The notes beneath the pieces are model-generated. The model saw only the letters and a list, made by a program, of their open reading frames with translations, was not told the DNA's origin and made no database searches. A stretch of DNA of 62,957 nt, counting the filler, from Sphacelaria rigidula (lineage: Eukaryota), in NCBI GenBank assembly GCA_964200075.2. It is 6 parts of 6 records of this genome, joined end to end, with 100 filler letters (N's around TTAATTAATTAA, not from the genome) between each part and the next. Parts side by side here need not be neighbours in the genome. Positions count along the whole stretch, not along the records: positions 31,531 to 41,939 come from CAXNAA020006542.1; 5 more parts are not named here. The stretch is one strand, 5' to 3'. Below are positions 12,927 to 61,957 of this stretch, one piece after another (position 1 is the first letter of the stretch; every line of letters begins with the position of its first letter). The position numbers and the translations under genes were made by a program.

Positions 12927-12963
<37 letters not shown>

Positions 12964-17822: not shown

Positions 17823-20316
17823 TCCTGTAGGTGTTGTCGAGCGGACTTCTTTCAGCCGATGGATGCGTGTCTAAGCGAATCACGCTATATAGGCAGAGAC
17901 CCCAGCACGCGTTCACCCTGGACTACTACTTACAGTGAAGCAGAGAGACGGGCATACAGCAAGTCCTGAGTGATGTGAAGGAAGTAAGCAGGAGGTAGGT
18001 ATATGTCATTTTGGATAGGCGCGAGTTTTACGTGCTGGGGGTGCGAAGCTTTGCTGTGGTTCTTCTCGAGGTCTCGCACGTGGGGCAGAAAAGTTTTGTC
18101 CGTTGTGAGTGTGAGGTCGTGCGAAGCAGAGCACACGCAGGTAGTATGCTCGATAGATCGTGTCATGCACCAGCTGTTTGCGGCGCTGCGTGCACAACCT
18201 ACAGTAGGCATGCATGACAAGTGACAATGCCAACAGCTTCTGAGGCTCTGCGCATTGCTTGGGTCGGAGGTAGGGAGTGAACGTTGTGTATGTATTTATG
18301 TACTTGGAAATATCTTTGTCACAGGGTCAAGATGGGGAATCGCAGTACATACGGTAAACGGAATCAACGGATGGGTGTTACAGTGCTACAGTAGAACAGT
18401 AGGGTGATGTACCGGGATTGTTATTATCTTCCTTACTTCATCTGCCATCGATTCCTTTCTAGGCAGTTAGTTTCATACTTGTCGGTCGAGCTACAGTAGC
18501 TCTACGTTGGTTTCGGCGCTTGTGACCTGCTTTTGCTATACTGTTTTTGTAAGGTCTGTAGTTGAGGAGATTTAAAACGGTTTGACGTTTTGGTTTGTTC
18601 ATTTTATACTCGCAATTTTACGTTAACGTTTAGGGTTGGTTTGTTCGTCCCTGTCGCGTGGGGGTCGGTTCGCTTCGTTGTGCTCGTTGTGCTCAGCATG
18701 TCCACATATACATAGGTGATGGTTGATGGGTGATGAGTGAACATTCCAGACGTGGATACGCGGCCGATAGAACAATTGATACTCCGAAGTTACCTTGCAA
18801 CACTGCACGGGCCACGCGTTAACTTGTTGCGGTGTATGTATTAATTTAATATATATATATATACATCAGCGTATAATGCATGATGACATACGCATGTATT
18901 GGAGACATATTTCCATTTCCTTCGGAGGACCTCAGTCACCTTACAGTCAGGTGCGCCGCGCAAACTTGTACCTGAAGCTGTATGGCATCAGCGTAGTTTT
19001 AGGTCGTGTGAAAGTGGGGAAAAATCCTGACTGAGAATACTGAGTACGGATGCTTCTGGTATCTTTTCTTGGAGCAATAGTTGTTGCTTTGTTTCATAAC
19101 ATTTCTAAGTCACGTTTCAGCGTTTTGGTTGGAACCAATGATATTTGGCGATTTGGATAGTGCAGTAGACGTTATAAACTCAACACGAGAAGAAATTGAT
19201 TGGTATCGTGTGTGCGTGTGTGCTCCCTATTGGAGGTCGCCATCGGCTAGTGTGGGATATGGGCATTATGGGCAGGGATGATGGCCCATGCGCGCCTTGC
19301 TGTTGATGTTGGTCGTTCTAACACTCCCTGCACGCGTGCTTGGGACGTGAAAAAATAGTACATTCGAACATGTGAGTTCTTGATCCTTTTGGCAACGCAC
19401 GCAGAATCCGAAAAGGGATGAGCTGGTGAGAGCCCCTTGACCACAACGTGCCGACGAATAACAATGTCTCATTAACTGGTAACCATGAAATGCTGCTGTT
19501 AGCGCACATATTTGTCATGTGGCCCAGGGAAAATTTTCATGGGACCAACGCATTCGCATCGAGATGCACGGTGTCTCGGCCATGTATGCAACCGAGTCTC
19601 CTCCTGGGTAGCCCTTGTCATCACTCGTATCGTGCTGTGTCGTGTCCTGTCCTGTCCCGTTCCAACGGCATGCCCGCGATTCTCAAAGGAGGAATAATGT
19701 GCTGATGACTACGCAGCTTTAGCGGAGGTACGCTCCCTGAGCCATGATATCTCGAACTTCCCGCTGGTGACGAGTCATACTGTCCACCCCATCACTTCGG
19801 CCATTCTTCTTTCTGCGACCACGATGACAGTGGTTGTTGCTCATGTGTTGCCCTTGGCATAGACCAGGCGGTTTCTTCACGGCCACAGCCCCTGCTGCCC
19901 GCTGACTCTGCTTCTGTTTATAAGAAATACAAATACAAAAACGCAACGCAGAATGCAATTTGGAGGATTACTGTTACTTAATCACATTCGCAATTTTCCA
20001 AGAATCTAGTGCCCGTGTTCACAAAGCCAAGACAAGAAGAATGACGGACCCACGAACATGAACATAAAGCGAGAGAACAAGGGGCCCGGAGTTTTACACT
20101 AGTCAGCGAAAAATAGAAAGCACAAGAATATTCCTCGAATCAAAGAAACAAACCAAAATAAAAACAAAGACGTCGGCAAGATGGCACGTGGGGAATGAGG
20201 GGCATAAAGAGGTCAAAATTAGGCAGAAGATTTGGGGCGGCATACCGATCAGATCAGGACAGGGCAAGGCAAGGTACGGTAGACACTTTTCACGATAGCC
20301 CCCCCCCCCAAACTAG

Positions 20317-20389
20317 CTCCGTCTCGAAAGGGATGCGTGGTCAATGGTCAAACGACTAAGGCAAGCAACAAATGAGTACGCTCCCCCCC
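20317..20389 (+). mobile_element. Short poly(C)-tailed element (variant B), inserted next to another C-run
   Basis: ctccgtctcgaaagggatgcgtggtcaatggtcaaacgactaaggcaagcaacaaatgagtacgctccccccc, flanked on both sides by C(n)A(n)ctag. Confidence 0.85.
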
Positions 20390-22099
20390 AAAAAAACTAG
20401 CCCAAACGGATTCGAGGTCTCAAGGCAATATCTCATCGACACGGACGAGTTGGGCCATGATTGAACTTCCCTGGAGCACGAGGAGACGATAGATACCCTC
20501 ACGTTCACCGAATTCGTTATCCATCTCCAGACGAGATCGAGTTCCAAATTAAAATCAAAATAATACGCAGAGGCACTAAATGCCCTCGACCTGGATATCG
20601 CGTCTCAGTTTTCGAGAGTTGTGCAATGAAATTTCGTATGCAGAACCGTTGGTGCATAAAACGATGAAGCTTTCTTCATTTTTTTTGTTTTTTCAGGGGA
20701 GTTTTGAGGAGAAATGAACACTGCTCGTAGGCCATATCTCCATTTTTTAGCTCAACTTGTAGAAATGTGATTTGAAGCTTACCATGGATCACAGAGAACA
20801 AGGTTTTCGTGAGATTGAGAGTTGGGTGTGGATTGAGAGTGGCTTTGATCATTCGCTTTAACTTCTTGGTCATTTTTTCATTCCGTGTTTGCTTTTCGTC
20901 GTCTCATCACTGCCATGTGCTNNNNNNNNNNNNNNNNNNNNNNNNNNNNNNNNNNNNNNNNNNNNTTAATTAATTAANNNNNNNNNNNNNNNNNNNNNNN
21001 NNNNNNNNNNNNNNNNNNNNNAAAGTTGCTCACACCACAGCTTTCCCAGTTTCCCGAATGAACCCGATGTAAGCATATCACTGTGAAGTGTAGACCAACC
21101 TGGTAACACACGGCACCGCCGCTGACTGAAGAAAAAATGAAAGAAATGTACTGCATAATGTATAACCTTAACGACGAACGGCAGAAAAAAGAGAATGTGT
21201 CGGGATTCGAACTCATGACCTCCATAATTGGAGTCTCCCATCACTTGGTTTTTAGGGGCGCAGCAGCGTCACGGAAAATGTTGAACGCACGGCCCAATTC
21301 GACGACTCTTGAGCTGAATTTTCAGGTAGACATTCTGCATTCAAGGAGCTGATACTTCACGAGAGCAGCTGCAGATTCTCTTGTTTTCCCTGGACTTATG
21401 ACAATATCTTGTTTCTGCTGAAATTTCAAATGTCCATTACTTTTTTTCTCCTTTTTTTTTGCTGCTCACGTGATCTTCTGTATTTCGATAATAAAAAGCT
21501 GCTGTCAAAATTTCAGGGCCCAACTCCTAACATCGCGCCGTGCGTCGCCTGAGCGAGATTCACACCTACTCTTGGCCGTCCCATCTTGTACTGTAAATGA
21601 GTATCGTCAGCTGCGCTGGCATTGCGTCATACGAATGCGGCATGCGACAGTTGTCTTTACGACAACCTCCACATGTTCTCAAAACAGGACTGGGCGGTTT
21701 GACGTGCTGTTCGCTGTGCCCCAGACGTATCCTTTCATGGCGTACAGGATTGTAAAATTCGCTGTTGCGCTAGTGATAGTCACTGTATGTCTGTTGATTC
21801 TGTTCTACAACACCAACCGTCGTTTTCTTGTTTCTTGTTTTTACAGGTTATTCACCAGCACACACAAATACTGTTTGTTGCGTGCCTTCTACATTTTTAC
21901 TTCGTCTACACCTATTTGAATAAGGGTGGTAGGCCGAGTAAATGTGCGGGTGCGCTGCGCTACATGTCACACAAACCTGTCGGCAGTGCACTGGCACCCT
22001 CTTCCTTGTTATTTTTGTGCACGTCGCGTCAGTTCCCCAAGACCATCCAAGCCTACTTCCACAATGATGAGACGTTTACTTATCAATCTTCTGATCTCT

Positions 22100-25000: not shown

Positions 25001-26278
25001 TAGGTTTACATAGTGGAGCGCGTGCAAACCGTTATTTGATAGCTCTTGCACTACCAGATTCCGGTTCGCCTCAAACGTTCATTACAGTCAGCTGCTGGCA
25101 ACAAATGATCAATGCGGGAGCGGCGGGCGAGCATTGTTTTCCCACCGCGCACCCTCGTGTTTTTGGCGGGTTCGGTTTCACCACGTCACTTACGATTAAT
25201 CAATCGGTAAGACTCATTGTACAATTCTTCCAGGATACTACTCCCACCGCTCGATTATCCGTATGGGCACTAATTGTGCCCAATGTTTCCATGTCTTTTG
25301 ATGTTTGTTGGATGGAGATAGTTGGCTTCGTTTCTCCACACACAAGTATACGTCGGACAAACCTGTTCCGAACCGTCCAGTCACAGGCAAACTGTCACTG
25401 GGTCATTTCGACACTGATTCGGGGGCTCATGCCTACAAGGATTACCCAACACAAACAGGTAATGTTTTCCGTCTGTACCATGTTGGTGAACCCATAGTCT
25501 CGCTCTCTCGTGAACCCCAACTTATTCTGTGAACCTCGTGAGATGCAATGGATCGCCCGCCCTCACAAGACATATTTTGGTCGAACTGTTCAAATCTGAC
25601 CAATCACAGGTTGATCCGTTCGAGCAGACCGAACTATTTTTTCATAAAGGCCGGCTGGCCATTTTCCTCACGTCCCCTGCATGTTTCGATATACTCAACG
25701 AACGGTTGATGTATTATGCTCAGGCACGTCTCCTACGAACTGCCCTGTCATATATGTGCTCCCCTGCGGGAACTAACTTGTCAACCGACACCCCGACAAC
25801 CACGGGCCCCCCTCCACTACACATGCCTGACCCTATGGTGGTGACAAATCCACCAGATGCGACTGAACCTGGATCCCCAACTGCATTACTGGACTGATTT
25901 TCCTCAGAACAACGTGCTAGTTTCCAAAAGGTTGTGGGATGACATCCCCTCTTATTTGCGGCATTATGCTTTTGATCTATCCGGTGATGGTTGAACACCC
26001 ACCGTAATCGATAGCTGAGATCCACTTTGATAGGATATTTTGAACGCTTTCTACTGCATCCTTAGATTTAGGCCGATGTAACATAACACCGGATAAAATC
26101 AAAATCCCAGGTGACACTCCACCTATCGCTATGCCTCCGTACCGTACGAACCCCCTCTCAGCGAGTAAGATCCAAGTAATTCTCGACGGTTACTTATCCG
26201 CCGGTTCAATTCGGCACTCGACGTCTCCGTGGGCCTTGCCTTTAGTAGCCGTCCGCAAGGAGAATGGCAAAATCAGAC

Positions 26279-26280
<2 letters not shown>
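22100..26280 (+). mobile_element. Highly degenerate Ty3/Gypsy-like retroelement (gag-like region, protease, start of RT); left boundary uncertain
   Basis: Protease-like LIALALPDSGSPQTFI (~25035-25083). RT N-terminus PYRTNP..ILDGYLSAGSIRHSTSPWALPLVAVRKENGKIRL (26131-26280), cut by a LINE tail. Confidence 0.75.
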
Positions 26281-26362
<82 letters not shown>

Positions 26363-29300
26363 CTTCACATTACAAACCGTTCCGATATCTGCGCGGTACA
26401 TTCGTACTGGGCATCTGATGCGGACGTCTTCCGTGGTCACCGGCTAGCTTCCGTTAATAAGGTATGAAGAAATTAAACAAAACCAAAGGAACCAAATATA
26501 CCTAGCTTAAAACTCACAAAACGCGATACAAGCAAAACGGGGATAAAAAATGAAGAAGGAAGAGAATACATATGGCTGACCTCAGAAGATCCGGTGCCGC
26601 AGGTGGCCATTCGGACTTCAGGGGGTGGCACCCGGCTTCCCAATTCGACGCGCGAGGCCAAGTAGAAATGAACACAGGGTCCGACTACGGGCGAGATTCA
26701 AGGCCCCAAATACCACCAACCAAAGAACTAAGAATCGCAACGCTCCATCTTTCGACCTCTCGAGGGACATCCATACGTACAAGCATACCAGGTGTATCAA
26801 GACAAGCACTGCATGACATAACGACACCCCTCATTGGGGGGGTTCACCACACCCCCCGTGCTCTGGACCGTCGTCATTACTGTGTTATGTGGGCTTCGTT
26901 GGTCTCCCGTCCAATCGCACGCAGTCGGCTGGCCTCCTCTTCATTTCTGTGCCATGAGGTCATGAACCTCTCCGCTTCCTGCAGCACTCCCGCGTGCCAC
27001 GGCAACCCCCCTCTTTATTCGCTCCTGAGGGCCATAGGGCGCGGTCAATTCCGAATGTCTGGCGATTGTTGTCCGTAGAGTCGTCTGTGGCTTCGAAAGC
27101 GTGGGGATCGTCCCTCAGGCACTCCAGTCAGTTTTGTTCCGGACACCCTGGTCCTGGATCCTCCCCCCCCGACTAGTGTTCCGAATGCTATTCGCTTCGG
27201 TAGTCGTTCGTCCGATTATCTGGCCAGGGCTCCCGCGGACAGCAGTCGTCGTTGCCGGACGTTGGCTTCAGCACTTTGGCATCCGGTCTTCTTGAGGGCC
27301 TGTGCATACGACAGCTGTCGGCATGTGCCGCGCACTCGGCGGTACCCGATGACTCGCAGGAGGAGCCGGTTGTGCACCTTTCTCAGCAAGTCGTAGTGTT
27401 CGCGGCGCGGGGCCCACGTCATCCATCCGTATAATAGGGCCTCCGTCGCCTCCGCTTTCAGCAGTCGGACCTTGAGTCTCCATGGTGCTTTCGGTCGGCC
27501 AAAGAGCTCCCGGGAGAACTTCCTGATGCACGCCCACGCTGCTCTGCTCCGATCGTTGATTTCTTGCTTGAGTTCGCCCTCTTCGTTGACAAGCCCGCCC
27601 AAGTATCGGAAACTACTTTTCTGGGCGTATTTCTGGCTCGCTGCTTCGATGATCAGCGGTGGGAAAGATGGTGTTGGTGACTCCCCCTTCTTCGGTGCTT
27701 GCCTCAGTACTCGCATCAAGAAATCTCCGTCTTCTTCTCCAATATACGGTCAGTCCAAGGGCCTCAAACACGTCCACTATGGTGGTCATCATCCTCGGCA
27801 GTCGATCGGGAAATCTTGAGATGGCGCAGGCATCGTGGGCATACAGCATTCCCCACACCGCAATCCGTACATGTTCCAGCGGTGTCTCCGCCCCCCTCCC
27901 CGTCTCCTTATCGAGATATACCATGTCCTTGGTGACGATATCATCCTCGCTGTATCGCACGAGGACTGTCTCGAGCACTGCCGCGAAGAAGGTGTTGAAC
28001 AGCACGAGAGACAGTACACATCCCTGTCGCAGTCCCTGTGTGACCTCAAACCACTCCGAGGGCTCCCCGTCGTCCATGCGTACGTTGGCCTTCATACCGT
28101 CGTGGAATTGGCGGATAACTGCTATCATATTATCCGGAATACCAGCTCGGCTCAGTACCTGCCACAGACGCTCTCGGTCGACCGAACCATATACCTTCTG
28201 GAGGTCGACGAAGCACATGTACAGCGATATTTTCCGCCGTCGTCCCAGCTCCTGGAGTCCGCGCACTACGAACAGCATGTCGACAGTTGATCGGTCAGAT
28301 CGGAAGCCACACTGTTCCCCCAGTAATATCCCGTGTGTTTCGCAGTAGTCGCTGAGGTGGCTGGCCACTATCTTCAGGAACACTTTTCCTGCGTGCGATA
28401 CCAGAGAGTTCCCCCTGCAGTTATTGTAGTCGGACCGGTCCGATTTCTTGTACAGCACCTTGATCGTTGCATCTTTCCACTCCTGCGGGATCTCCTCTCC
28501 GTTCCGCACCTCGACGAGTATGGTATGGAAGCGTTCGAGGACGATGGGTTCGGCGCGGTCGTCGATCTTGAGTAGCTCCACAGGAAGGGAGTCGTGTCCT
28601 GGCAATTTCCAGTTGTGCATCCCCCGGACTGCTCATCTGGTTCCCTCCTGTGTTGGTGCGGCCCCAAGCGGGACTGAGTCCCCGGTGGTGGACTCTGCCG
28701 GTCGCTGCTTCACCTCATCGATGATGGCTGGGTTCAGCTATGGCGATTTGGCGCTGAGCAGGGTGCGGAAGAACCTCGCCCACCGTTTAAGGATGGCAAC
28801 TTTGTTCCTCGGTAGGACGCCGTCCTCGTCCTTTATAAACTGCTGCCCCACGGATTGCCTTCTACCAAGACCCACCGATCTCTTGAGGTGTTCGTACAGG
28901 CCTCTCATGTCGCGATCCTTGTAGATCACTTCTAGCCTTGGCACATACCTCTCCAGAGATGCCCATGCATGCCGTCGTCTATTGCAGTACGCGCGTTCTT
29001 ACACGCGGCTCTGGGTGCTTCTCACGATGCTGGGGTCCGGTGATGCTTCATCAGTCGGCGTGCCTCCCGTCGTTCGGCGAGCGCTGCCTCCACTGTTGCT
29101 CTCGTGCCGGGATTTTCACACCATTCCGGCATACACGGTATCCGTATCTCTTCCGGGAGTACTGCCTGCGCTGCTTCGAGGATAGCTTCGGTAAACTCCT
29201 TCGCGGCCGCCGGTACGGTGGTGATTGGCTGGTATTTTCGCTCGGCGAGGTTATGTAGGAACCTCTCGGTCACGTGCTACCTTGCCATTTCGGTCGGCAG

Positions 29301-29840
29301 CTTCTGTCGACTGAATTGCCGCTGCTTCGACTTAGTGCGCACTTGGCGGTTGTGGGCAAGGCGGCCACCGAGGTCGACAGTGGCCACCACCATGTTGTGG
29401 TCCGAGTCTGCTTTAGCCGGGGGTGCGGGTTGGGGGTGTACGACTACGTTGCGCACTCTACCTCGGTGTGCCTCCCGGGTGAGTATGTAGTCTGTGCGCT
29501 TGAGGTCGCTCGTGCAATTCCCCGCAACACCGTTGTATGTGTGCGAGACTCCGCCTTTGCGCATGCTAAAGAAGGTGCTCGTGATGGCTAGTTTATTGTC
29601 GGTTGCAAAAGTTAGCAGAAGTTTGCCGTTATCGTTCAGCTCATCACGCTCATAGGCGCCTAGGACCCCTTCGTCCTCTAAGCCCTTTCCTACTTTGTCC
29701 CCCGTCCGCGCGTTGGCATCCATCAATACATACACACGTTCCTTCGACGGGATTCGCTGTACGAGATCGTCAAGTCCATCCCAGAACGCTTGTTTCGTTT
29801 TCGTTCTTGGCGGTTTCAGTTGGTGCTGTAGCCTTCGGGC
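26279..29840 (-). mobile_element. RTE-clade non-LTR retrotransposon (LINE), 5'-incomplete, frameshifted, with a (CAA)n tail
   Basis: APE endonuclease motifs APTE..MDANARTG..NDNG..DYILTR..SDHNMV (29277-29835). RT motifs EQCGFR..TVDMLF..CFVDLQK..GLRQGCVLS..MLYAHD (27613-28620). C-terminal FRYLGG..ALLYG..TW (27216-27719). A 3' UTR and a (CAA)n tail at 26279-26361. Confidence 0.95.
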
Positions 29841-29845
29841 AACAT

Positions 29846-30521
29846 TGTTACCTATTACTGCAGTGGAGAAATGCGTAGCAGGCGTTTTTAGTCTGGTTGG
29901 TGGATAACGGGTCTGAGAGTATGATCGATGGACTCCGTGATGTATGTTGTATACAGAACGAGGCAGGCCGGTCACTTCTGGTGAACGAAGACTGCCGTTT
30001 GTATAACTGCTTGGAGTTTTGAAGTCTTGCAGTCTCTGGAGCCCGTGACTGGGAGGAAGCCTCTGGAGCAGCAGCACTGTAACCTTGTCCTGATTGCAGG
30101 CAGGTTCACAATAAACGTTTATTCAGGAAACTTGTCGTTTCTGGAAAGGGTTTTCGAAGCCGCGACCCACAGTCTGTAAAACGGGGGACGCTCACGTTGA
30201 AAAACAGGGGGGGAGGAAGCGGCGGAAAGAGAGGCGCTGGTCATATAAGCCAAGGCAACTGAAGGAAGGGAGCCTTTTGGAAGGGTGGCAGCGCGCAGGA
30301 GGATAGCAGGAGTAGAGCCGAGAAGGTTCTGAGGTAGTGCTAGGGTGCGCTTTGGTATCAGTTGATCATCAGCTGGGTTGCCCGGAGAGCCTGCCAAAAA
30401 ACGTGGCGCAATTACTACCTCAAACGGGAGAATTGCAAGAGGGCAGGCTCAAGGTTGGCCAGCCGCGTTCAAGAAGAGAAGTCTACGAAGGGCTTCAAAA
30501 CGTGGTGAGAGCTGCGTGACA
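29846..30521 (+). mobile_element. Candidate LTR truncating the LINE 5' part
   Basis: LINE homology stops abruptly near 29840. The segment is bounded by tgttac...gtgaca with an internal aataaa and is followed by a repeat-containing degenerate ORF region. There is no second copy in the contig. Confidence 0.3.
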
Positions 30522-31594
30522 AGAGGTGCTGTGTTCGCCATAGTGTGGTGACAACGCTCGTCTTGGTGTACGGGCAGAGTTGCAGTTTCTGTGCTTGGGA
30601 GGCAGTTGAGTTTTTTTCACATTTTGTGTTAATTTTTGACATGGCAAGGCTCAGGATCAAGCACCTGATTGTGCCAAGCACACAGAAACTGTCATCACGG
30701 CTGGCCGGCGCACCGCGGCTGCGGCCGCCGCAGCGGGTAGTGGCGGTTCTGGCTCGAAAAAGCCTTCCAAACCTTGTCCCACCACACAGAAACTGTCGTC
30801 AGCGGCTAGCCGGCGCGCCGCGGCTTCAGCAGCCGCTGATAAGCCAAATAGCGCGCCCAACCAAAATGCAGTGCCCCGAGGCTGTTGGCGATGTGTGGGC
30901 CGAGGTTGTCATAGGTGCGGTGCTTATGATCCTACGGCGGGAGCAAGTACAGCTCCGCAGAAATTTCTGCTTCAAGGGGAGGTGCATTTCAAGTTGACGG
31001 ATTTAGACCCGCGCGATAGACTTGTGTTCGAAGACAAGCGTGTAGCTGAGGACACGCCTTGCATGCTCGAAGCTGCAGGGGGGTGATATTCGCGTCATGC
31101 GGACGAGCAAAGCGGGCTTGTGACTCGCCGTACTCATGGCAAGTCTCTAAGCCCCGACGATATGGCGGGAGATGGTTCAGATGATTCGCAGGGGTGTCTG
31201 TTTGAAGGAGAGCTGGATGCACCGTTGGCGGAGTTGCCGCCGGAGCAGTGTGGCGCTGTGGACATGCCGTGCATGCTGGAAGCAGCAGGGATGTGTGATC
31301 CGCGTGAGGCGGGTAGGCAGAGCGAGCTTCCGGCTTGTGATGCTATTAGGACACTTTATACGATAGCCCCCCCCCCCCAAAAGTGCCATGATGTTAGACG
31401 TGGAATTATCGCAATATTTCAATATCTTACNNNNNNNNNNNNNNNNNNNNNNNNNNNNNNNNNNNNNNNNNNNNTTAATTAATTAANNNNNNNNNNNNNN
31501 NNNNNNNNNNNNNNNNNNNNNNNNNNNNNNTTTACTCACCTTTTCTCGCTTTCCACAGTGGAAAGCATACATCACGAAGAAACAACTCAACGCA

Positions 31595-35500: not shown

Positions 35501-38500
35501 AGTTGAAGTATTGTAAACACTCGGTTCTTCCTTAAAACCCAGGCGCTCAAACGGAAGCACGCAGAGGTGTGATGGAACCTGTGCTTTACGGATGTGGCGT
35601 GATAACACAGGCAAGTGGCACGTGGTGATCGAGAAAGGGGCGGAGAATTACGAGGACGCGTGACGTCGCGAGGATTCCCGGCAATCCATTTGACATTGCA
35701 AGCAAGAGGTTGCTGCGCCGAGAGCCGTCAACAGGCGAGCCGTCACCGATGGTACAACAACAGTAGCAGCTGCTGCGCGTGAGGAATCGATGGAAACGGT
35801 CGACGTTGTGACCCACTTTTCCCCCCACTACTGTAGGGATGAATGAGGGTAGCCCGGAAATTGATCTACCGTTGCCTTTCGGCTGTTGAAGTCTTTCCCT
35901 GGCCAGTAACTGCTCCGTCTCCAAAAGGATGCGTGTTCAGTGGTCAAACGACTAAGGCAAGCGACAAATGAGTACGCCCCCCCCCCCCTCCCCCCTGGCC
36001 AGTAACATTGGCGATACTTGTTTGCTTGTCTACAACAGTAAAAACAGGGCTGAAATGTCTCCACTGTTTGCATACAGTGTCTCTGAGTGTGTGTGTACGT
36101 GTTTCGTACAGTAGGATGCGAAAAAGAAGCGGGCAACGTCCAGCACAGATAACGTGGAACTATCTGTACTCTCTGCTTACAATGCGACGTGGAAACGACT
36201 CGAACAACGTGCGGGTTTGTATTGCTTGCAACGTCCATGAACGTGTAAGCAAGTCGGTCGCCCATCCCACAACGTGGTTCCGTCGCCGATCTCTGCCATC
36301 AAAGAAGATGCTTGAGTTCTCGGCAGAGAAAGATCAAGGCATCATACCCAACTACTGCAGTGTACCCATCCCTGTGCTCAACTCGTGCTCTATGCTGCAG
36401 GGTCGTGATGGTAGCTGAGAATGAGTTGTGTGGGGTTTGCATGGTTCTGTGAACGGGTGGTCTGCAAGATAGGGGTTAAGTGCCCCTTAGTACCTCCCCT
36501 TTTCATGTTTTTGATAGAAAAAGCTTAGCTTCATTACATATTACTTTTCACCCGCGTGCCGCTAATTATAAAAAATAGTCGAAGCCAGCCAAGAACAGAA
36601 ATACCATGAACCTATCAGATCGAGTTCCTTTCCGCCTCACTTTTTCGATCGAAAAAATGTGCTTAGACACGCCTCAAGACAGGGCCCTAGGGCGTGTCTT
36701 CGCACTTCTTTCTTCGATCGAAAAAATGGGGCGGTGGAACCGATTTGAGCGGAAATTTTTCGTTTTGATGCAGTTGGGTCCAGATGGACTTTCAAGCTCT
36801 CAATCGAAAAACTACAGTGAAAATCGTGAAACGACACATGGTCACTCGTGTACAGAACAGACAGTCTGTCCCACGGATTGTTCACTTTTGGGACGTTTGA
36901 TCCACCTTTTGACCCCCAAACAGGGAAAACCGCCAACACACGTCTCGGACACTTCGCATCACCGCACAGAGAGGAGCCTAGCCCACTTTTCGGATTTCCT
37001 CGGCTCCAAAGTTTCGAGATTAGCCGCTGAGCAAAAATTCGTGCGCAAAAATCTGTGCTTGCCGACCTCCGCCAGTTTGGCGGGGTCAAAAGGTGGGTCA
37101 AACGTCCCAAAAGTGAACAATCCGTGGGCCAAAAATCTGTTTGCCACAAAATCCGGCCCAAGACACGCCCTCAGCAAAGCATTTTTCGATCGAGAAGGTG
37201 GGTGCGGCGGAAAATGAAAAATCTGATCTGACAAGTCGTCACTCATGTCCACGTCATTGATGTTAAATTGTCGTGGATCTATCAGATCGGAATTTTCTTT
37301 CCCGCCGCACTTTTTCGATCGGAAAGTGATGTGCCAAGACACGGCCTATAAGATACGGCCGAAGACAGGACAAAAAAAGAAGCGAGAAACGAAACAAGCC
37401 TCCAAAAGCAGCATGTTGATTGGTCGCCGGGCCCAGCGCAATCAACCAACATACTGCTTTTTGACGCTTGCTTCGTTTCTCGCTTCATATTCTAGTCTCG
37501 ATAAGACGGGGCCTAAGATCGGGTTGCCTTGCTCACGTCATCAGTACCGCTCGCAACTGGCACAACACAGGGTGAAGCTCGACGCCTGTCTCTCACAAGA
37601 TCCCGATATCTCGTTCGCCAGCTGCGAATTCCGAGTCAAGCACTCTCCTATCATAGAGCGTTCTTCTTGTTTTTTTTCTTTCATCCAGTGGTATTGGTGT
37701 ACTTGCAAAGTGTCGGCGTCTCATCCCTGCAGCGTTCGCGGGCGAGAGTTTCCAGTTACCAAACCTCTTTTGTTTGTGTCATCTCGGAAGCCATGCGGCA
37801 GACACTTTCCCCTTTATCTTTCACTAAACCTGTTTTCGGATTCACTCTGAGAGCGTTTTTTTTTTTGTCCCCCATCGTTTCATTATATTTTTTTCTTTGC
37901 TTTGTATTTTCCTCTTGTTTCCCTCTTTCTTGCTTTAGGTCGGCCATTTCTTTCTGTGCTTTGCTTGTGTTGAATTTTCATTACTTTTTTTTTGGCACGA
38001 CTTAGTCTGTTACGTCGTTCTGTTTCGACCCCCCCTTTTTTTTCTGTTCCTATATATTTTTTTTCTTAGAGCGTGTTTGAATTTCGTTTGTCTTGGGTAC
38101 GTCGATCAAGAGACCACGGCTGGACCCCTGGGGGGTCAGTTAAAGTGCGACAATCAATCAATCAAATCAGCGTTCCGTCCATCAAGGGTACATGTCTACT
38201 TTCTATCTGATCAGCACGGCTGCATTCGTCGCGGACCAGATGATATACGACGACCACTTGATTAATTAATTAAGCATTAATACAGTATTCGTAGTGCAGT
38301 ACAGACGATAGTAGGATTCCCCAAAGCACCGGGAGGCGTCTCCTTGTGAACCCGAAATCTCAGAAAATATGCGCTTGCCGTACCCGAACTTCAGAATATT
38401 CGCGCACGATACAACTGTAGTACCCGTACAACGATCGAAATGAGTGAAGAAGAAAATCACATGATGGTTATATTACGCAGATGTGTGGTTGATCGATTAT

Positions 38501-41400: not shown

Positions 41401-43973
41401 GTAAGCTTTGTACCATACGATATGCACCTCATGGCCAACATGGCGGCAGTAATATAGACGGTTGTTGGAGTTTTGGAAAAACGTTTTTTCTGGCCGCAGT
41501 CATTTTAGCTTTGAGTGGAACCGTACAATCGACCAGTACAGTACGAGGAGTACATTTCATTCCTCCCTCAGCTTGTACAGAGGATCGCAGTGGATTGAGT
41601 AAACCTCCGTACTCCCCTTGTACAAGCAGTCGCGGTTCTTGGTGAGGGGGATTTTTTTTCCAAGACCAAGAAGAGGCGCAAGTGGGTGTGGGTGATGCTC
41701 CGTAAATGATGCGCCATCCACTGGATTTGTAAGTGGCTGCTTCGATACATGCTTTCATTTTCTCGAACGCCCCCGTCTCACTCCGTACACAGATTAGATG
41801 ATGAGCTGCGCAGAGCCTTCGAAGAAATCATCACTTGGTACACGCGGTACGTGCTAGTGTTGTTGAAGTCCCCCCCCCCCCCACCGAAGATGAAGGGCAA
41901 CTAGTACCTGGATATGGACATGACGTTCCCCTCTGTACCNNNNNNNNNNNNNNNNNNNNNNNNNNNNNNNNNNNNNNNNNNNNTTAATTAATTAANNNNN
42001 NNNNNNNNNNNNNNNNNNNNNNNNNNNNNNNNNNNNNNNGGTTCTTCCAGTTCCTCTGGGGACAAAAAAAAAATGAGTCCTGCGTATCCCTGTACTGAAG
42101 TGGTACAGCATGCGATGAGGCCGTACGTAGTCGACAGGAACGAACAAGCTTGTGTGTAGGCAGCTGATCTCCGTCGCGGAGAACTGCCCAAAGCGTGTAA
42201 GGGAGTATGCAGCAGCAGCTGCTGCGAGTCAGAGAGGCGTACTGTACTGTACTGTACGTGCGCCTCAATTATCATGCCCTCCGAAGAGAGTTTGTCGCTT
42301 GCAACAAGAAGGGCAATCGCGGTCCAACCCGATCACAAAGCGCTTTGTGGCAAGGTGATGGGGACAATAACATCATCCCAAGCCACAAGTGGCGGGAGGC
42401 TCGGGCGGCCCGCCGGTCGCCACATCCTGTTGAAAGCTCTCTGCGGCGACCCATACTGCGTGAACCATCTGTACATGATCTGGTGCGCACCCCACCCAAA
42501 CTACAGTTTGTACCTGCACGTGAAAATAAATTGGATGGAACTTTCGGTCTTCCTCCTAGCCCTGCGGTTGCATACGTGGGTTATCAGCAACATGAAGCCA
42601 CTGTTTCGTGCAGACGCCAGACACATCAGATGGCTCATGAGCTATTCACAAGTACTAAGCGAAGAGGACGTGTAGATCCCTTGACCAAGAACACGATATA
42701 CGTGACAGCGCGTCTGAGGAGCGAAAGCGCTACCCTTGCGCTACTCCAGGCGCTCGGCGTCCAGCGGTGTAGGGCGCAAATATCGAAGAAGGGGCCAAGT
42801 TAGCGAGCTCATCATCCGCATCAGTACACTAATAAGAAGTAATACTCACGTACCTCGTGAGCTGTCGCACGTGTGCACTTTATGATTTTTTTCTCTTGTG
42901 TGGTGGTACCCTCATATAGTTGAGAGACTACGTCCGCCATGCAGAGCATCGCTCGCTGACCGACGTAGCGTTAGTGGATGAACTATCGAGAAAGGAGGAG
43001 CGTCCGGCCAGCTGATGGTGACACAGGTACTGTGTTGTATCAGGGCAAAAGCCATTTCACACTAGGAATTGAAGAAAGCTGTTAGTATCGACGTGTAGGT
43101 GAAAAAAAAGCCCGTTCGAGCCGCCCCGGCCGTTCAGGCTAGTTTTCCCGCGTTGGGCTACAAATGTTCATGGTTGGCACAAGTTCACAAGTATCCTTAA
43201 CCCGAACCCGAAAACCCTCGAAAACGGGCGGTACATACATTCCCTAGGCAAAGTTTGGTCTTGGTACCCGAAATCGGCGCTTGTGGCGCCGATTCCAACT
43301 AAAACGCGTTCTGCGCCCGCGGGGAGCATACGGGACTCTAAGCCTTGCCAAACATCCGGTTGTCGTTGTACACACTTGAATCAAGTAATATCAACCACGA
43401 ACATTTGTAGCCCAACGACCGTAAACGTTACTGTGGATGTTGCCCAGAGCGTCGTCGTGCCTGCAGTGCTTTCAAACAGCGCCTAGCCACACACATCAAC
43501 ACACAGTGACGTGAGTTCTTTGCAACGACGTTTTTTTTGTGTGACTGCCGGCTTTTCCTTCTTCTTTGAAGAAAGAATCCTCACCCGATTGCCCTGAGGC
43601 TCGGCTAGACGACCTCGCGACAGCCATCTGGGGTAGGCTCCTCGAGCGTTCAAAAAGCTTTGCTCGAGGTCAATGTGAGGGTCGAACTCACTGTAACATC
43701 CTTTCAAGTTTGCCTACTGCATGCGCCCTATCCTCGTCAGCTTCGGACCCAGTGTGCGTCGGTGACACCGCGAAACATGTCATGATGATCTATATCAGCA
43801 TCTCGTAAAATGCTTCTAGGCGATATCGGTCAATCTGCCTTATTCTGAATCGCCGACAGTCGAATCACCCGAAAGAATCTGGTCCACACTTGCAGTCGTG
43901 AGAGACGGTCATTAGCCGTGGCTACTCGAAGCAGCTTCTCCCCCGTCTTTTCGGATGAGGGCGCGCACATTAA

Positions 43974-44076
43974 CCCTTAGACCGCAGTACGGGTAGTCCA
44001 TCTGGACCATGCATACTTTTTTCAAGTGAACATTTGATGCCGATTCAGTAGGTGACCTACCCTCGCGGTCAAAGGG
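43974..44076. mobile_element. ~103-bp piggyBac-type MITE, copy 1
   Basis: TTAA|cccttagaccgc ... gcggtcaaaggg|TTAA. Confidence 0.88.
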
Positions 44077-44083
44077 TTAACTT

Positions 44084-44214: not shown

Positions 44215-45994
44215 ATTATGATGTGCAAAGGCACGCCCTGAGCGACAAAATTATGGTTCAACTTGAGCGCGTTGGCCCCCAGGACGAGTCATCTGTTGAC
44301 GGGGCATCATTTATCTCCGTGAAAAGAATTCAAAACCTAGCAGACTCGCTCGGCGGTCGAGGATGCAATCAGGCCCATGTTACTTCCAAAACATCCGACG
44401 GGCCAGGCGTCCAACCGCGTGTGATGGGTGGGTAACCCTTGAGTGATCGTGGCCCACCCACCACCAACCCCAAGGGCGGCTCGACGGTGGTCGTTAGAGC
44501 ATAATTGCCGACATCGCGGAGAATTGCTGCGAAGCACTAGCCTCGGGGTGACACATGTGTAGGTCAGTCACAGTACAGTGAAATCCGGCGTCCTGCTGGC
44601 GAAACAGTTTACCAGCACAGCATGATACTTCATCGCAGCAGCAGCTTTTCAGTCGATCCGGACACTATGCGACTCCAGTATACCAACATTTACCCCTCGA
44701 GAGGAGAAACTTCAATATGCGCGGCGATTTGATACGGGCAGATCATGCTGATCGACTGAAGGTCGCGCATGAAGCGATCCGCGACGAATGCGACCATGGT
44801 CGTTAGACACAAGGTACGAGTACACGTATCCGAGGTCAACAAACAGAGCACTCACGAAGGGAAGCGTGGACATGGAGGAACGATGAGAACCAAAGGAGAG
44901 AAGATAAAACACCGTACGGTAAAATGACGAAAACGGGAGAAAAACGCATAAGACGAAGTGGAAACGAACTAAAGGTCGTCAAAGCAGGTTGTAGCTCAGC
45001 TGCCTGGGGATCACACGATTTGGGCAGGAAATCTCGGCCACTAACCTTGTAGGAGCGGGACGCCAACACCTTGCGGCATGGTGGTCGCATATTTTTGACT
45101 GCCTTCTGACCACGGTCAATGGCCTTTGGCTTGGAAGGTTGGTGTGAAAATCCACGGGATGGACCATGGTGCCTGCACCTCACTGAAACGTTGTTGCGAT
45201 ATAGTTCCTATCATATCAGGCGCCCGCTTACTATTTACTTTCTATTCATCTGTTTTTACGCAACAAAGACCTGCTACTATACTTGCAGCTAAAGCGCGTT
45301 CACACAGATGTGAGACGAATCATAGGACGCTTCGTATGTCCATGCGTAACAAATACTGTTGTATCCGATCTTGAGAAGATACAAGAGTATGGTGAAAACA
45401 AGGTCAAATAGTACAGACTAGCCAAGTACGATCAAGAAACCGGAAATAATAAACAACAGCAAACCCTGATCTCACGGGTCCCAAGCACAGGATCATGACA
45501 CAACTGTGCGCAGGTCTGCCTGGTTGCACCGACGTGAAGCCTGTAGGTCGAGGACCCCCCACTCAATCCGTCTGGTGATGCTACGCTGGGAAATTTCGAC
45601 TACGTGGGCTTTGAGAGGCTGCAAGACACATTATTGCGCCAAAGGCATGGACACAGCCGCTCCAATATACACAGTACCGCAGGCGACGGTGTATATTACG
45701 GTAACTTGGTACACCATCCCCTCCCCCTCCCCTGAACAACACTGAACAACACCCCCCGCGACATGTTCTCGGATATTTTTGGCATCATATCGGTGTCTAC
45801 AGTGCAATGGAGGTTCCGATATGGTGCGGTCGTTCGCCAGCCGGGGATCACCGTACTCTTGCGATGCGATAACGTGACTTTGGCAACTCAGAATGCATTT
45901 TCAACCGCTGATCATGACCACACTGTGGTTGTACCCTACCCAGTGCATACTTGAGGTGTTTCAAGGCTCCCGCGAAAGTATCAGTGGTGCTTAA

Positions 45995-46101
45995 CCCTTA
46001 GACCGCAATGCGGGTAAATTAGTCCATCTGGACCATGCACACTTTTTTCAAGTGAATATTGATGCCGATTCAGCAGGTGACCTACCCTTGCGGTCGAAGG
46101 G
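45995..46101. mobile_element. piggyBac-type MITE, copy 2
   Basis: ttaa|cccttagaccgc ... gcggtcgaaggg|ttga; near-identical to copy 1. Confidence 0.88.
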
Positions 46102-46694
46102 TTGAGCGTAGCCGGAGGCTATGTTGCAGGTACATATCGCATAGGAGCTGCGATAGCGAGCTTGCACCACTGCGTGTGGCAAATGAACGGGTAGTAAACA
46201 GGATACATGTATTTCTGACGGGGTTGTTCGATGGCGAATAGATCGTTTACACTCATCCCCGCTTCTGTACTCCCGTAAGAACGCTTGTGATGTCGAAGCA
46301 ATTCGAGGTTAGTGTTCTCGCGGTCCATGTCATGATTGTCTCGCCTTGAATCATTGTGGCAGGAGCGTACTCTCACGTGAAAATCGATATTGTATTGCGC
46401 ACGTCTTACGGCAAGGATACGCAACTGTTCCGAAGGTATTTGCCTCTGAGGTGCACTTCATACTGTGATCAACCTCGAGCTACACCTGACCATGGCATGT
46501 CGATTAGAAGAGAGCTGGATGAGAGGAGGACCAGTTGGGAGGGCAACGGATGCACTCGTGTACAATATTTGCGTTCGCTGGGCTGGACCCTACCCGCTTG
46601 GCGTAAGTTCTTGTTTTGCTGTCTCTTTTTCACTTGAACAACACAGTGCCTAACGTCGGCTCGCGTCCGTGACGGCATTCCCTTGTAATACCAG

Positions 46695-49600: not shown

Positions 49601-51839
49601 AATGTTCAGAAAAAACAAAGCAGTAATTCGGAAAACAAACAGCACAACAGAAACAACTATACACGAGAAGAAGGAAAACACGGGGGAAGAGGTGGCTCTT
49701 CGGAATGCACCTTGTAGAGGCCTGATCCACGTGTCATCTTGATGCTCCCGTGTCCGATTGACGTAATACACCCCATGTACAGGCAACACCAGTCAGCCCT
49801 ACCCGCAAGCCCAGCTCACCGCGGCCTAGAAGTAACAGCTGTGGGGAAGCAAAACAAGTGGACGATGAGGAAGAGCAAGCGAAGCGCGCGAAGGAGGAGC
49901 AGTATCTACGCGAGCACAAGAGAACGCTTGCCTACATGGCCAGGTATTGCGCTGTGCTGTCATTTTCCAGTGAAGTCGGTCCACGTGTAGGTACGCCGTT
50001 GCCAGCGTGTTGGACTTCGCTTGAGTCTGCAGAACATCTTATATCCTAAATCCAGATTGTTCTCAGTCACAGGATTGACTCCTGCCCCCGAGTTTCGTGT
50101 TGATGTGCCACTGCAAAGCCCCGTTAATGAATACATTCCCTTGTCCCCGAGATGTCGGATCTTTCCTGTTGGGACAAGTCGTTGAAAAACTTTGATATAC
50201 GATGTCGTGCACTGCCACCCGTGGGCTCAAAGGGAGAATGACTGATTCGCGGTTGAGGGGTCCAACTAACGATCCTTTTTTTCGCTTTTTTTTATGGGGG
50301 GGGGGGCGGGGAGGTGGCATGTTGGCGAAATCACTTGAGAACTCTGTTTTGTTCCGCTCTCGGCATGTGATGTGTGTAGGGATATCACACCCGGGACAAT
50401 ATATGATCAATATATGCAATAGATACATGTACTGGGTAAAGTATGGGCCTACTGCAACGTCATTTTTGACCGACAAAAGTTGCAATAAGCCCATACTTTA
50501 CCCAGTACACTTTTCGTATATTGCATCTATTGACCAAATACTGTCCAGGTTGTTATATATTTTTACTGTATGTACCTTGCTCGTTTTTGATTCTCGTCCA
50601 AAATGTGGTATTGAACGACTCCCAGGCAGCGGAAGGTGGCGATGTTGGAGAAACGTAAAGCAGAAGAAGAGAAGACGCTGAAGGCTGAAAAACTTCGGCG
50701 TGCATTGCAGGCAAGTTCCCCCCCCCCCCGCCCCCGCCCCCTTCGTATTTTTGTTTTTAGTGCTTCTGACCCCCCGTTCCCCTCCGCAAAACGCCTGTGT
50801 AATCTGAGAGTATTGACCTCCATCTCTCACGTGATTCTTTAATGATAGAGCATGATGGACCCAGCATTATCGCAGCCTGTCAATGTTTGTCGGGTCCCCC
50901 TCAGTCCCCGGACGTTCATGCAAACAGTGCTGATCATGAGCGTATTAGATTATGTAGCTGTCGCCATGTTCCAGCAATCAAGAGTGATTTACTCGCAGAC
51001 AATATATGAGCAAGATTCCCGCGAAATGTTTTGCATGACTCCCGTTGTTGTTTTTATGCCGACGAAAACCGCAATCTGCTCGAAAAGACGGTTGACGGTT
51101 GGTGTGTCGGGATTCGAAGCCGCAGCCTTACTTCTTCCCCACTGCCGTATGGGGGTATGAGTGAGGCCACAGGGGCGCGACAGCAGGCAATACTGACACT
51201 GACCAAGGAGTAGAGTGATCCGGACGGTAGCTTACAACGACAGCATGAGTGCGGCGTCAACTCTTTCGCCATCGCTAGAGGAACATGCTTGCCTAGCGGT
51301 CATAATCCAGTGGAAATGGTGCTGATGTAAAATATGAGAGACGGGACACCCCACGCACTTAATGGGGGCAATTTATGTTGTGTTGACGGTCAACGATACT
51401 GTGGTTCGTGGCCTCACATGTTCTCATCTCGATGCCATGTTGATGTATGTATGCATGTGCGTATGTTTGTATCTATCTCGCAGAAACTGGAGTCGGACAG
51501 AAGGCAAAGCATCTCCTTGCCCCCGCTCCGCTCGCACTCGAGGGAAAACATTTCCGCGGGCTCTTCCTCTAGAAGGTCTCGCGTCGAAGGTAGTAACAAC
51601 GGCACTAGCAGCAGCAGCAACAACAACAACAACACCCAAAATGTCGGATCAAACGGCGGCAGCTTACAAGGTCGTCCGCGGCAGGGTCGCGCGTCCAGCG
51701 CAAGACGCGGCGCAACTTCCGCCGCTTCGACACACACGGCAGCCGCGAGGGCGCCGGGGACAGGGGCAGCGGACTCTGCACGACCGGCTTGGATTAATGT
51801 TGCGGATGGCACGGCGCAGCCGGGTTCACCGGAGGACAT
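46695..51839 (+). CDS. Uncharacterised S/R/A-rich, partly coiled-coil protein (5 internal exons)
   Basis: Phase-consistent exons 46695-47491, 48618-48753 (alternative GC donor at ~48709), 49783-49943, 50626-50710 (GC donor) and 51484-51839. Charged segment DDEEEQAKRAKEEQYLREHKRTLAYMARQRKVAMLEKRKAEEEKTLKAEKLRRALQKLESDRR. No family recognised. Confidence 0.75.
48951..49255 (+). mobile_element. tRNA-derived SINE, 5'-clipped intronic copy
   Basis: Aligns along its length with 33320-33755 (B box, cagtggagagcg, gtcgtgggtacacaaaa, accgaaaggtgta). Confidence 0.82.
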
Positions 51840-52249: not shown

Positions 52250-52403
52250 TGCTCCGTCCCGTCATGTATGGATGCAAGGTCAATGGCCATATGGCTGTGG
52301 CGTGCAACATCATGAGTGCACTCTCCACACGCGTATCTCCGACTCCAAGGGATGCGTGGTCAATGGTCACATGACTGAGGCAAACATTGGAATAAATACG
52401 CCT

Positions 52404-52432
<29 letters not shown>
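52250..52432 (+). repeat. Tandem variant A + variant B poly(C)-tailed elements
   Basis: gctccgtcccgtcatgtatggatgcaaggtcaatggcc..atcatgagtgcac, followed by ctccgactccaagggatgcgtggtcaatggtcacatgactgaggc..tacgcctc(C)n. Confidence 0.78.
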
Positions 52433-52434
<2 letters not shown>

Positions 52435-52548
52435 GGTGGTCCCGCAAANNNNNNNNNNNNNNNNNNNNNNNNNNNNNNNNNNNNNNNNNNNNTTAATTAA
52501 TTAANNNNNNNNNNNNNNNNNNNNNNNNNNNNNNNNNNNNNNNNNNNN

Positions 52549-58531: not shown

Positions 58532-58898
58532 CTGCCAGAAGATGAGCCAATGAAACCACAGACGTGAAGGCCACGTGGTGAAGCGCAGACAAGCATGACC
58601 CAACGCCAAAAAACACGTCTTGATCGAAATGACGGTACTTCGGCTTACAAATATGACACCATTCGCCTGCATGTATCGAACATGGGTCCGATTTGAAAAC
58701 ACGGCAAAGTTTGTCGGAGATCGGTACACATACACCCGCAACGCAACACAAGTGGTAAGCCACCACTGATGCGCTTGTCAGCAATGCCGCAGGTATCAAC
58801 GCCACGGGTCTCCGCATGAAGGCTTTGAACAAAATGATCAACAAAAGGTGACCCTGACATCAACCATAATTCTTTAGTACAAGGGTCGTCATTATTAA

Positions 58899-58998
58899 CC
58901 CTTAGACGGCGAGAGTAGGTCATCTGTTGAATCGGTGTCAATTTCACTTGAAAAAGTGTGCATGATCCAGATGCACTACCCTGGGTGGTCTAAGGATG
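58899..58998. mobile_element. piggyBac-type MITE, copy 3 (reverse orientation)
   Basis: ttaa|cccttagacggcgagagtaggtcatctg...; reverse complement of copy 1. Confidence 0.8.
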
Positions 58999-59850: not shown

Positions 59851-59950
59851 CCCCTAGACCGCGATGCGGGTAGCCCATCTGGATCACGCATAATTTTTCA
59901 AGTTAAATTGATGCCGATTCAGCAGGTGGCCTACCCTCGCGGCCGAAGGG
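59851..59950. mobile_element. piggyBac-type MITE, copy 4
   Basis: ttaa|cccctagaccgc ... gcggccgaaggg. Confidence 0.82.
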
Positions 59951-59954
59951 TTCC

Positions 59955-61853: not shown

Positions 61854-61857
61854 TTTA

Positions 61858-61957
61858 TCCGTTGACGGCGAGAATAGGTCATCTGTTGGCATGGCGTCAA
61901 TTTCACATGAAAAAGGTATATGCATGATCGTCATGGACTACCCTCGTGGTCTAAGGG
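61858..61957. mobile_element. piggyBac-type MITE, copy 5 (reverse, degenerate)
   Basis: gacggcgagaataggtcatctg...ggactaccctcgtggtctaaggg|ttga; aligns with copy 3. Confidence 0.75.

Follow-up and report, generated by a model that had tools for sequence, protein, structure and literature searches.

Short C-tailed units in the genome of the brown alga Sphacelaria rigidula probably are tail-only retrocopies of a C-tailed brown-algal non-LTR (long terminal repeat) retrotransposon, that is, of a long interspersed nuclear element (LINE) with a single open reading frame (ORF) encoding an endonuclease (EN) and a reverse transcriptase (RT). The window analyzed here is a stretch of 62,957 nt (assembly GCA_964200075.2), consisting of six pieces of about 10.4 kb that are joined by N44-TTAATTAATTAA-N44 linkers. 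The analysis started from one unit, B3, at positions 35897-36006, where a first-pass annotation had described a 66-nt body with a C tail between two copies of an exact 14-bp duplication; both a repeat finder and direct reading recovered this arrangement. The annotation took the body for an independent tiny family of retroposons. Instead, it is the 3′ end of the parent LINE itself and contains the final 19 codons of the EN-RT ORF together with its stop codon. Five features were observed directly, as described below: the body is identical with the end of the LINE, the tails consist of C, the duplications begin with C, the units have a fixed 5′ boundary, and they form head-to-tail arrays.

The body of the units is the 3′ end of a LINE

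A scan of metagenomes with a 24-nt degenerate pattern of the core yielded nine loci (L121-L129). Four of them (L121, L123, L124, and L129) are true relatives that contain the whole 66-mer; the other five (L122 and L125-L128) are chance matches that do not belong to the family. In each of the four true relatives, at least 577 nt of mutually homologous sequence lie upstream of the 66-mer, a tail of 8 to 11 C follows it, and the homology ends at the tail. An open reading frame containing a CxxC...H....C motif occupies this upstream sequence; it ends with ...NGAPSRKGCVVNGQMTKASNK and is followed by TGA, the five nucleotides GTACG, and the C run. The 66-mer accordingly consists of a single T, the 19 codons that close the ORF (APSRKGCVVNGQMTKASNK), the stop codon, and 5 nt of untranslated sequence.

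When the translation of this ORF was used in a protein search, the full-length relatives P0122 (1360 aa) and P0124 (1328 aa) were retrieved, as well as proteins that their sources assign to Ectocarpus sp. and to Sphacelaria rigidula. The terminal peptide NGAPSRKGCVVNGQMTKASNK, or a close variant of it, is shared by P0122, P0124, and P0125, the last of which is from Ectocarpus. An Exo_endo_phos domain, typical of endonucleases of the apurinic/apyrimidinic (APE) type, occupies residues 170-414 of P0122, and an RVT_1 domain occupies residues 740-989. For all four true metagenome relatives, the 66-mer was thus found to be continuous with the end of an ORF for an APE-type endonuclease and an RT. 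In blastn comparisons, B3 is 87-92% identical to the four loci, starting from LINE position 577, and in tblastn the B3 body matches the last 19 residues of P0122. The stretch as a whole matches the parent-LINE proteins solely over these last 19 residues, with six short units and no LINE-attached copy. Therefore, the parent LINE is absent from the stretch, as the first-pass annotation had stated for the partner it postulated, and all units are tail-only.

The terminal segment is better conserved than the sequence preceding it: the identity among the four LINE loci is 95.2% over the final 66 nt, compared with 74-87% in the 66-nt windows upstream. Five coding positions vary within this final segment, and the variation at each of them alters the amino acid.

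Within the stretch, a search with a 17-nt core and up to three mismatches gave six matches, all on the plus strand, where 0.37 were expected and none of 100 shuffles reached six. The units are distributed over pieces 1, 2, 4, and 5, that is, four of the six pieces, and include the further copies reported earlier at 1-210 and 52250-52432. A viral contig collection searched for the repeat contained no match. The core-pattern search of genome contigs returned at least 120 loci (L001-L120), and none of the 120 listed continues like the family: 106 of them continue with CNGGNGA, and the one locus tested is GcpE/IspG (Pfam, E 2e-55). These matches were rejected as homologues, since the 19-nt core encodes G-C-V-V-N-G, which coincides with the bacterial GcpE/IspG stretch MGCVVNGPGE. 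The 19-nt core is therefore a pitfall in pattern searches, in which it picks up bacterial GcpE/IspG genes by coincidence.

C tails and target-site duplications of the units

The units were assigned to two subfamilies, A and B, and are all found on the plus strand; A1 and B1 are in piece 1, and A4 and B4 form a dimer at 52250-52432. B3 starts with the left target-site duplication (TSD), CCCTGGCCAGTAAC, at 35897-35910, followed by the 66-nt body at 35911-35976, which corresponds to the LINE 3′ end (T, last 19 codons, TGA stop, and GTACG), and by a tail of the form C12-T-C3 at 35977-35992. The tail runs into the CCC of the right duplication, again CCCTGGCCAGTAAC, at 35993-36006, so that the exact 14-bp duplication starts with CCC directly after the tail. 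The description of B3 as a retroposed unit with a C tail and a C-initial duplication has thus held up. The sole inverted repeat was the palindrome CTGGCCAG within the duplication; the terminal inverted repeats that would be expected of a DNA transposon or a miniature inverted-repeat transposable element are missing, in agreement with the initial description.

B2 (20316-20389) was inserted into the 3′ end of a different C-tailed element (...ACGATAG plus C11, then AAACTAGC; 20280-20317). Its body, at 20316-20380, with the G of GCTCCG at 20316, is 97% identical to L121 and L124 by blastn, and it is followed at 20381-20401 by the tail and the right flank repeat, CT-C7-A7-CTAGC. The two flanks, C11-AAACTAGC (20299-20317) and C7-A7-CTAGC (20383-20401), are 79% identical over 19 nt, with 8 nt exact; the C(n)A(n)CTAG sequences that had been noted on both sides of a copy near 20317 are therefore present, albeit as an imperfect repeat.

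The remaining units are organized in dimers or are fragmentary. A1, at 1-79, ends with C7 and represents the diverged subfamily, in which 5 additional nt are present and the LINE frame is lost. It is followed by B1 at 88-162, with the body at 88-153 and a tail of the form C4-T-C4. A 22-nt 3′ fragment of an A-type unit with C6 is located at 175-202 and is 94% identical to positions 51-82. A4 (52250-52326) consists of a body at 52250-52320 and the degenerate tail CTCTCC, and B4 (52336-52432) of a body at 52336-52400 with a degenerate 5′ end and a tail of CCT-C29; B1, A4, and B4 were delimited by reading and blastn. The two A-then-B dimers, A1+B1 and A4+B4, share linkers of equal length, 15 nt. 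A possible CCCGC(G)AAA flank repeat around the A4+B4 dimer is interrupted by the end of the piece.

The C tails in the stretch are 7-29 nt long, and the stretch contains eight runs of C or G of at least 11 nt, compared with a single run of A or T of such length. B2 and the units within 1-222 sit in or beside earlier C tails. Taken together, the 14-bp duplication of B3, the imperfect 19-nt repeat of B2, and the C tails make up the combination of TSDs of variable length and a homopolymer tail that characterizes non-LTR retrotransposons. C runs of 11-17 nt are also found at 41870-41882, 50296-50306 (minus strand), 50718-50743, and 62879-62948, with no recognizable body of the family upstream. A near-palindrome, CCCCTCCCC-GCGCGC-T-GGGGGGG, is located at 151-181, after the B1 tail, and gives a weak match to the Rfam model TCV_Pr (E 0.3).

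The units have a fixed 5′ boundary and form arrays

In blastn comparisons with the parent LINE, the units start at LINE positions 576 (B1 and A4), 577 (B3), 578 (B2), and 579 (B4); A1 was left out of this comparison because it begins at base 1 of the stretch. Nearly all units begin with TGCTCCG, and the boundary base is the T before GCTCCG. This boundary was examined further in Logan contigs of four runs of the same organism (X1, X3, X4, and X5; three studies), which were placed on L124 at 80% likeness, resulting in 76,837 (X1), 90,613 (X3), 50,607 (X4), and 4,152 (X5) placed contig pieces. All runs were analyzed as contigs, and the joints and loose ends given here are those among the rows listed, beyond which there are 2971 loose-end rows and 864 joint rows. 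In L124 the element is on the minus strand, with the tail at 103-112, the 66-mer at 113-178, the T at 179, and the upstream LINE sequence from 180 onward.

The match ends exactly at L124 position 179 in 400, 366, 327, and 51 contigs of X1, X3, X4, and X5, respectively, so that the fixed 5′ end claimed on the basis of the stretch is seen in the contigs as well. The consensus of the next 30 letters past 179 is an A and a G run (agreement of about 0.46-0.49), which corresponds to a C run directly upstream of TGCTCCG. In many contigs, L124 positions 175-182 are joined head to tail to positions 104-108, which gives a period of 72-79 nt; the X1 joint rows listed comprise 1, 8, 5, 22, 12, 5, 12, 6, 7, and 15 contigs. 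In X1, 1641+398+390+390 contigs extend as at least 16 G before they diverge, and thus the tails are usually longer than in L124.

Copies attached to the LINE were also found in the contigs: 691, 724, and 550 contigs leave the reference at 212 but continue, by their consensus, into the upstream sequence of the LINE itself, and LINE-attached copies are therefore abundant, too. The summed word depth is 8-14 million over the 66-mer versus 1-4 million over the next 260 nt. This roughly threefold higher depth, which is not a copy number, hints that short copies outnumber long ones. The discrete 5′ boundary of the units may be a new feature.

C-tailed LINEs in the Ectocarpus repeat library

A curated repeat library is available from the Ectocarpus mobilome paper of 2025 (PMC12477816). 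Supplementary file 1 of that paper describes RTEX-1_Ec32 as 'single EN-RT ORF; (C)n 3′' with a 'C-rich' TSD, and RTEX-2_Ec32 as having a single EN-RT ORF and '(C)n termini/TSD', likewise C-rich (PMC12477816). Two entries are non-autonomous, namely RTEX-N1_Ec32 (607 bp), with the notes '60 bp 3′ end 83% RTEX-1_Ec32/RTEX-2_Ec32' and 'can be present in tandem', and RTEX-N2_Ec32 (188 bp), with the note 'could be SINE' (short interspersed nuclear element) (PMC12477816). According to the main text, the RTE-X families account for 16,418 copies, and RTEX-N1 is the most abundant single family (PMC12477816). Thus, C-tailed LINEs, C-rich duplications, and parasites that have only the last 60 bp or so in common with them have already been catalogued in brown algae.

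The parent LINE shows the features by which the library notes describe RTE-X, that is, a single EN-RT ORF, a (C)n 3′ end, and C-rich TSDs, and it is of the RTE-X type by this published description, with descriptions rather than a tree or a consensus alignment being matched. The existence of a partner LINE that ends in (C)n and has target duplications rich in C, which had been predicted from the stretch, was borne out by the four metagenome loci and by the library entries. At the same time, the possibility named at the outset that would undo the claim of a separate family, namely, that the sequence is the 3′ end, already annotated, of a LINE whose C tails are known, has largely come true with the RTEX (C)n entries as they are described in the library. 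A search of the literature on C-tailed retrotransposons beyond this paper found nothing relevant, although texts writing 'poly(C)' may have been missed.

Searches for RNA structure and for a pol III head

Two kinds of structure could bear on the fixed 5′ end and on the classification of the units: a self-cleaving or tRNA-like RNA, and the head of a SINE. At the gathering score, Rfam gave no match in the whole stretch, and when E values of up to 10 were admitted around two copies, all matches were at the level of chance (TCV_Pr with E 0.3 at 151-181; all others with E >4). Hence, none of the Rfam models for self-cleaving ribozymes (hepatitis delta virus (HDV)-like, hammerhead, twister, and others) was found. 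ARAGORN predicted no tRNA gene in the stretch. The fold z-scores ranged from −0.77 to +0.41 for four sense sequences and were 0.01 for the antisense, so that no significant RNA structure was detected by folding. The covariation term of the RNAalifold consensus was +0.11. In a four-helix model, 97.3% of the cells are paired, and its covariation score was reached by 64 of 500 shuffles; one pair shows a compensatory change. HDV-like and hammerhead topologies were rejected after comparison by eye. The proposal that the fixed 5′ end results from self-cleavage or processing thus gained no support from Rfam, folding, or covariation, although these tests are insufficient to exclude it.

As is typical of SINEs, the units have the 3′ tail in common with a partner LINE. 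In contrast, neither ARAGORN nor Rfam detected a tRNA-, 5S-, or 7SL-derived head carrying an internal RNA polymerase III promoter, and the whole body is the coding end of the LINE. It does not represent a separate SINE descended from a small RNA.

Proposed target-primed reverse transcription with C instead of A, and its alternatives

The data fit target-primed reverse transcription (TPRT) in which C takes the place of A, as indicated by the C tail, the CCC-initial duplication of B3, the C-rich TSDs in the published library entries, and the location of units in or near earlier C tails. In the proposed scheme, which follows the established L1 model, the LINE RNA would end with the last 19 codons, the TGA stop, GTACG, and the C run. 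The endonuclease would nick C-rich targets and expose a bottom strand ending in G, and this G-ending 3′ end could then pair with the C run and prime reverse transcription. The RT probably also recognizes the terminal module, some 60-100 nt, rather than a poly(A) tail, given that the last 66 nt are 95.2% identical compared with 74-87% upstream and that the published parasites have only that end in common with their LINEs. For the short copies, either cDNA synthesis or the RNA template would end at one fixed base, the T before GCTCCG. C runs would be the preferred target, so that new copies land in old tails, resulting in nested and head-to-tail arrays. The mechanism put forward in the first-pass annotation, namely, priming of a C-tailed RNA from G-ending nicks by a C/G-specific LINE, therefore appears to be essentially right, with the priming chemistry still inferred, but it is not new.

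Several observations weigh against this account. Duplications are readable in only two units of the stretch, and that of B2 is imperfect (A3 versus A7). G-rich inserts are located between tail and flank, GCGCGCT-G7 after B1 (163-176) and GGGGTGG after B4 (52433-52439), which simple TPRT does not predict; they may be traces of snap-back synthesis at integration. The 5′ boundary is not absolute, because the copy at 175-202 is clearly shorter, and the distribution of 5′ ends rests on the rows listed. Contig depth does not equal copy number, so that the depth ratio gives only a hint of an excess of short over long copies. The conservation of the LINE end reaches about 100 nt, with no step at the 5′ boundary of the unit, and the fold z-scores and covariation shuffles provide no significant RNA structure that would back a recognition module. 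Finally, the RTE-X assignment rests on matching descriptions.

Four readings of the boundary were considered: a short RNA template, an RT that stops at this base or jumps from it onto another C tail, an insertion hot spot, and growth of arrays at the DNA level. The tail-only unit could be a short lineage that propagates itself from a discrete C-tailed RNA of about 67 nt, which would arise from its own start or by cleavage of LINE or array transcripts, with the RT jumping from its 5′ end to the C tail of another RNA and thereby generating arrays. The first base is identical in four units of the stretch and within 1-3 nt in B2, the mode of the match ends is at one position in all four runs, and six short copies are found in the stretch where LINE-attached ones are missing. 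The A subfamily has retained the same 5′ start despite 5 extra, frame-breaking nucleotides, and this, together with the equal 15-nt linkers of the two A-then-B dimers, is suggestive of a lineage propagating on its own. However, no promoter boxes, tRNA-like gene, or Rfam ribozyme were found, and LINE-attached copies are abundant (550-724 contigs per large run), and we therefore regard a self-propagating short RNA as possible but doubtful. Far more doubtful is a separate reading, in which the 66-mer defines its 5′ end by itself, as a self-cleaving ribozyme or a tRNA-like structure. Its length would be typical of small ribozymes, its 5′ end is fixed, and a GCUC/GAGU closing helix with two hairpins can be drawn with 97.3% of the cells paired; yet the Rfam matches are at the level of chance (E ≥0.3), ARAGORN finds no gene, the fold energies are the same as those of shuffles, the single pair with a compensatory change is equaled in 83 of 500 shuffles, and the order of the helices is unlike the nested pseudoknot of HDV-like ribozymes. 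This reading appears most improbable.

The boundary could also be an insertion hot spot, at which C-tailed copies insert upstream of TGCTCCG in old LINEs and sever the last 66 nt. This would account for the hundreds of contigs with a C run directly upstream of the unit, and C-tailed elements do insert into each other's ends in the stretch. However, B3 is located in unrelated DNA between the two copies of its exact 14-bp duplication, B2 has flank repeats of its own, no LINE fragment ending at position 576 is present in the stretch, and the target would not be C-rich, which makes a hot spot very unlikely. Alternatively, the arrays might be a satellite with a repeat of about 75 nt that arose a single time from the end of a truncated LINE and then expanded through unequal exchange at the DNA level rather than by reverse transcription. 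The joints with a period of 72-79 nt in many contigs would be compatible with a satellite, as would the library note that RTEX-N1 'can be present in tandem' (PMC12477816). Against it, dispersed single units have TSDs, the C run between the units differs in length, and the subfamilies alternate (A, then B), which is unlike a homogenized satellite, so that we consider this explanation unlikely. The 14-bp duplication of B3 in unrelated DNA argues that single units were really retroposed.

A more far-reaching interpretation can be offered only tentatively. The last 66-67 nt of the C-tailed LINE might constitute a self-contained minimal retroposon lineage, the smallest known, with a diverged, non-coding A subfamily of its own and A+B dimers. 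Its fixed base might reflect either a short RNA of defined extent or an RT that is programmed to jump from the module boundary to the C tail of another copy. If this were true, nature would already have mapped the minimal RT-recognition cassette of a C-tail LINE, which would lie partly inside the ORF.

Other elements in the stretch

The stretch contains a different LINE at 26279-30122 on the minus strand, with an APE-type endonuclease ORF at 29277-30122 and an RT ORF at 27613-28632 (Pfam RVT_1, E 1.5e-16). This LINE shares 65-75% identity with P0001, a relative of 1199 aa, its ORF ends near 26880, and a (CAA)28 tract is located at 26279-26362; its closest named relatives are in Ectocarpus sp. 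and Ascophyllum nodosum. A C7 run at 26836-26842 (minus strand, 33 nt after the stop) was rejected as a C tail of this LINE, as the element is RTE-like and continues to (CAA)28. The RTE families of the Ectocarpus library carry the note '(CAA)n 3′' (PMC12477816), and the element with its (CAA)28 fits these families. It appears to interrupt a pol fragment of the LTR or DIRS type on the plus strand (26044-26418). Another (CAA)n tract, on the minus strand at 12927-12976, may be an RTE-type 3′ end or a coding CAA/CAG repeat.

A second C-tailed 3′ end, ...GACACTTT..ACGATAG, then C11 or C12, then AAA, is common to two pieces (20280-20312 and 31349-31381). The GACACTTT copy at 20280 is about 20 nt long, and the copy at 31349 follows an ORF-like region that contains ...PCMLEAAG... 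twice. This end may belong to a further RTE-X-type or non-autonomous family.

A 197-nt direct repeat (6007-6203 and 10216-10412; 99% identical, 4.2 kb apart) flanks a Copia-type gag ORF at 6805-8031 (Retrotran_gag_2, zf-CCHC). This element, which extends as far as piece 1 does, probably represents an LTR retrotransposon or a derivative that has only gag. In addition, a repeated element with ends of the form TTAACCC(T/C)TAGAC is found at 43970-44078, 45991-46103, and 59847-59952, as well as at 58895-58956 and 61854-61915, with two copies 2 kb apart in piece 5; these ends resemble piggyBac-type termini at TTAA targets.

Significance and comparison with known systems

C-tailed LINEs show that the choice of base for target priming does not depend on polyadenylation, and these elements are an independent test case for the coupling of endonuclease specificity, tail sequence, and RNA recognition. 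The stretch adds three features to this picture: a tail that starts 5 nt past the stop codon, so that the cis-acting module reaches into the coding sequence, a 66-nt unit that is discrete and can be copied alone, and a head-to-tail pile-up of such units in C runs. In genome annotation, such units should be masked as LINE ends and not as a new SINE family.

L1, together with Alu and processed pseudogenes, is characterized by a homopolymer tail, a TSD that starts with the tail base and is variable in length, and 5′ truncation, and the units described here are alike in all these respects. Unlike in L1 and Alu, the tail consists of C instead of A, partner and parasite have a conserved 3′ body in common, which differs from recognition of the tail alone, and the 5′ end is fixed rather than staggered. 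In stringent LINE/SINE pairs, such as UnaL2 and UnaSINE1 of the eel, the partners share a 3′ tail, and recognition by the RT is ascribed to a conserved 3′ module of short length together with a repeat tail other than A. The system analyzed here is similar in that the partners have only the 3′ module in common, whereas it differs in that the tail is a homopolymer of C, the module extends into the ORF end, and no stable covarying stem-loop was detected.

The closest parallels are with the RTE-X families of Ectocarpus. RTEX-1_Ec32 and RTEX-2_Ec32, as described in the library, and the parent LINE are alike in their brown-algal hosts, single EN-RT ORF, (C)n 3′ end, C-rich TSDs, and high abundance (PMC12477816), and the terminal peptide of the parent ORF recurs, unchanged or as a close variant, at the end of P0125 from Ectocarpus. 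The RTEX notes consulted in the library make no mention of a tail abutting the stop codon or of 66-nt tail-only copies with a fixed 5′ end. Like the units, RTEX-N1_Ec32 and RTEX-N2_Ec32 have only the last 60-100 bp or so of the LINE and C-rich TSDs, and the tandem note for RTEX-N1 recalls the arrays; compared by description, the A+B dimers (about 165-185 bp) are also close to RTEX-N2 (188 bp) in length. However, according to their library descriptions RTEX-N1 and RTEX-N2 carry a 5′ head of unknown origin, whereas the units in S. rigidula are headless or have a second copy of the module as their head.

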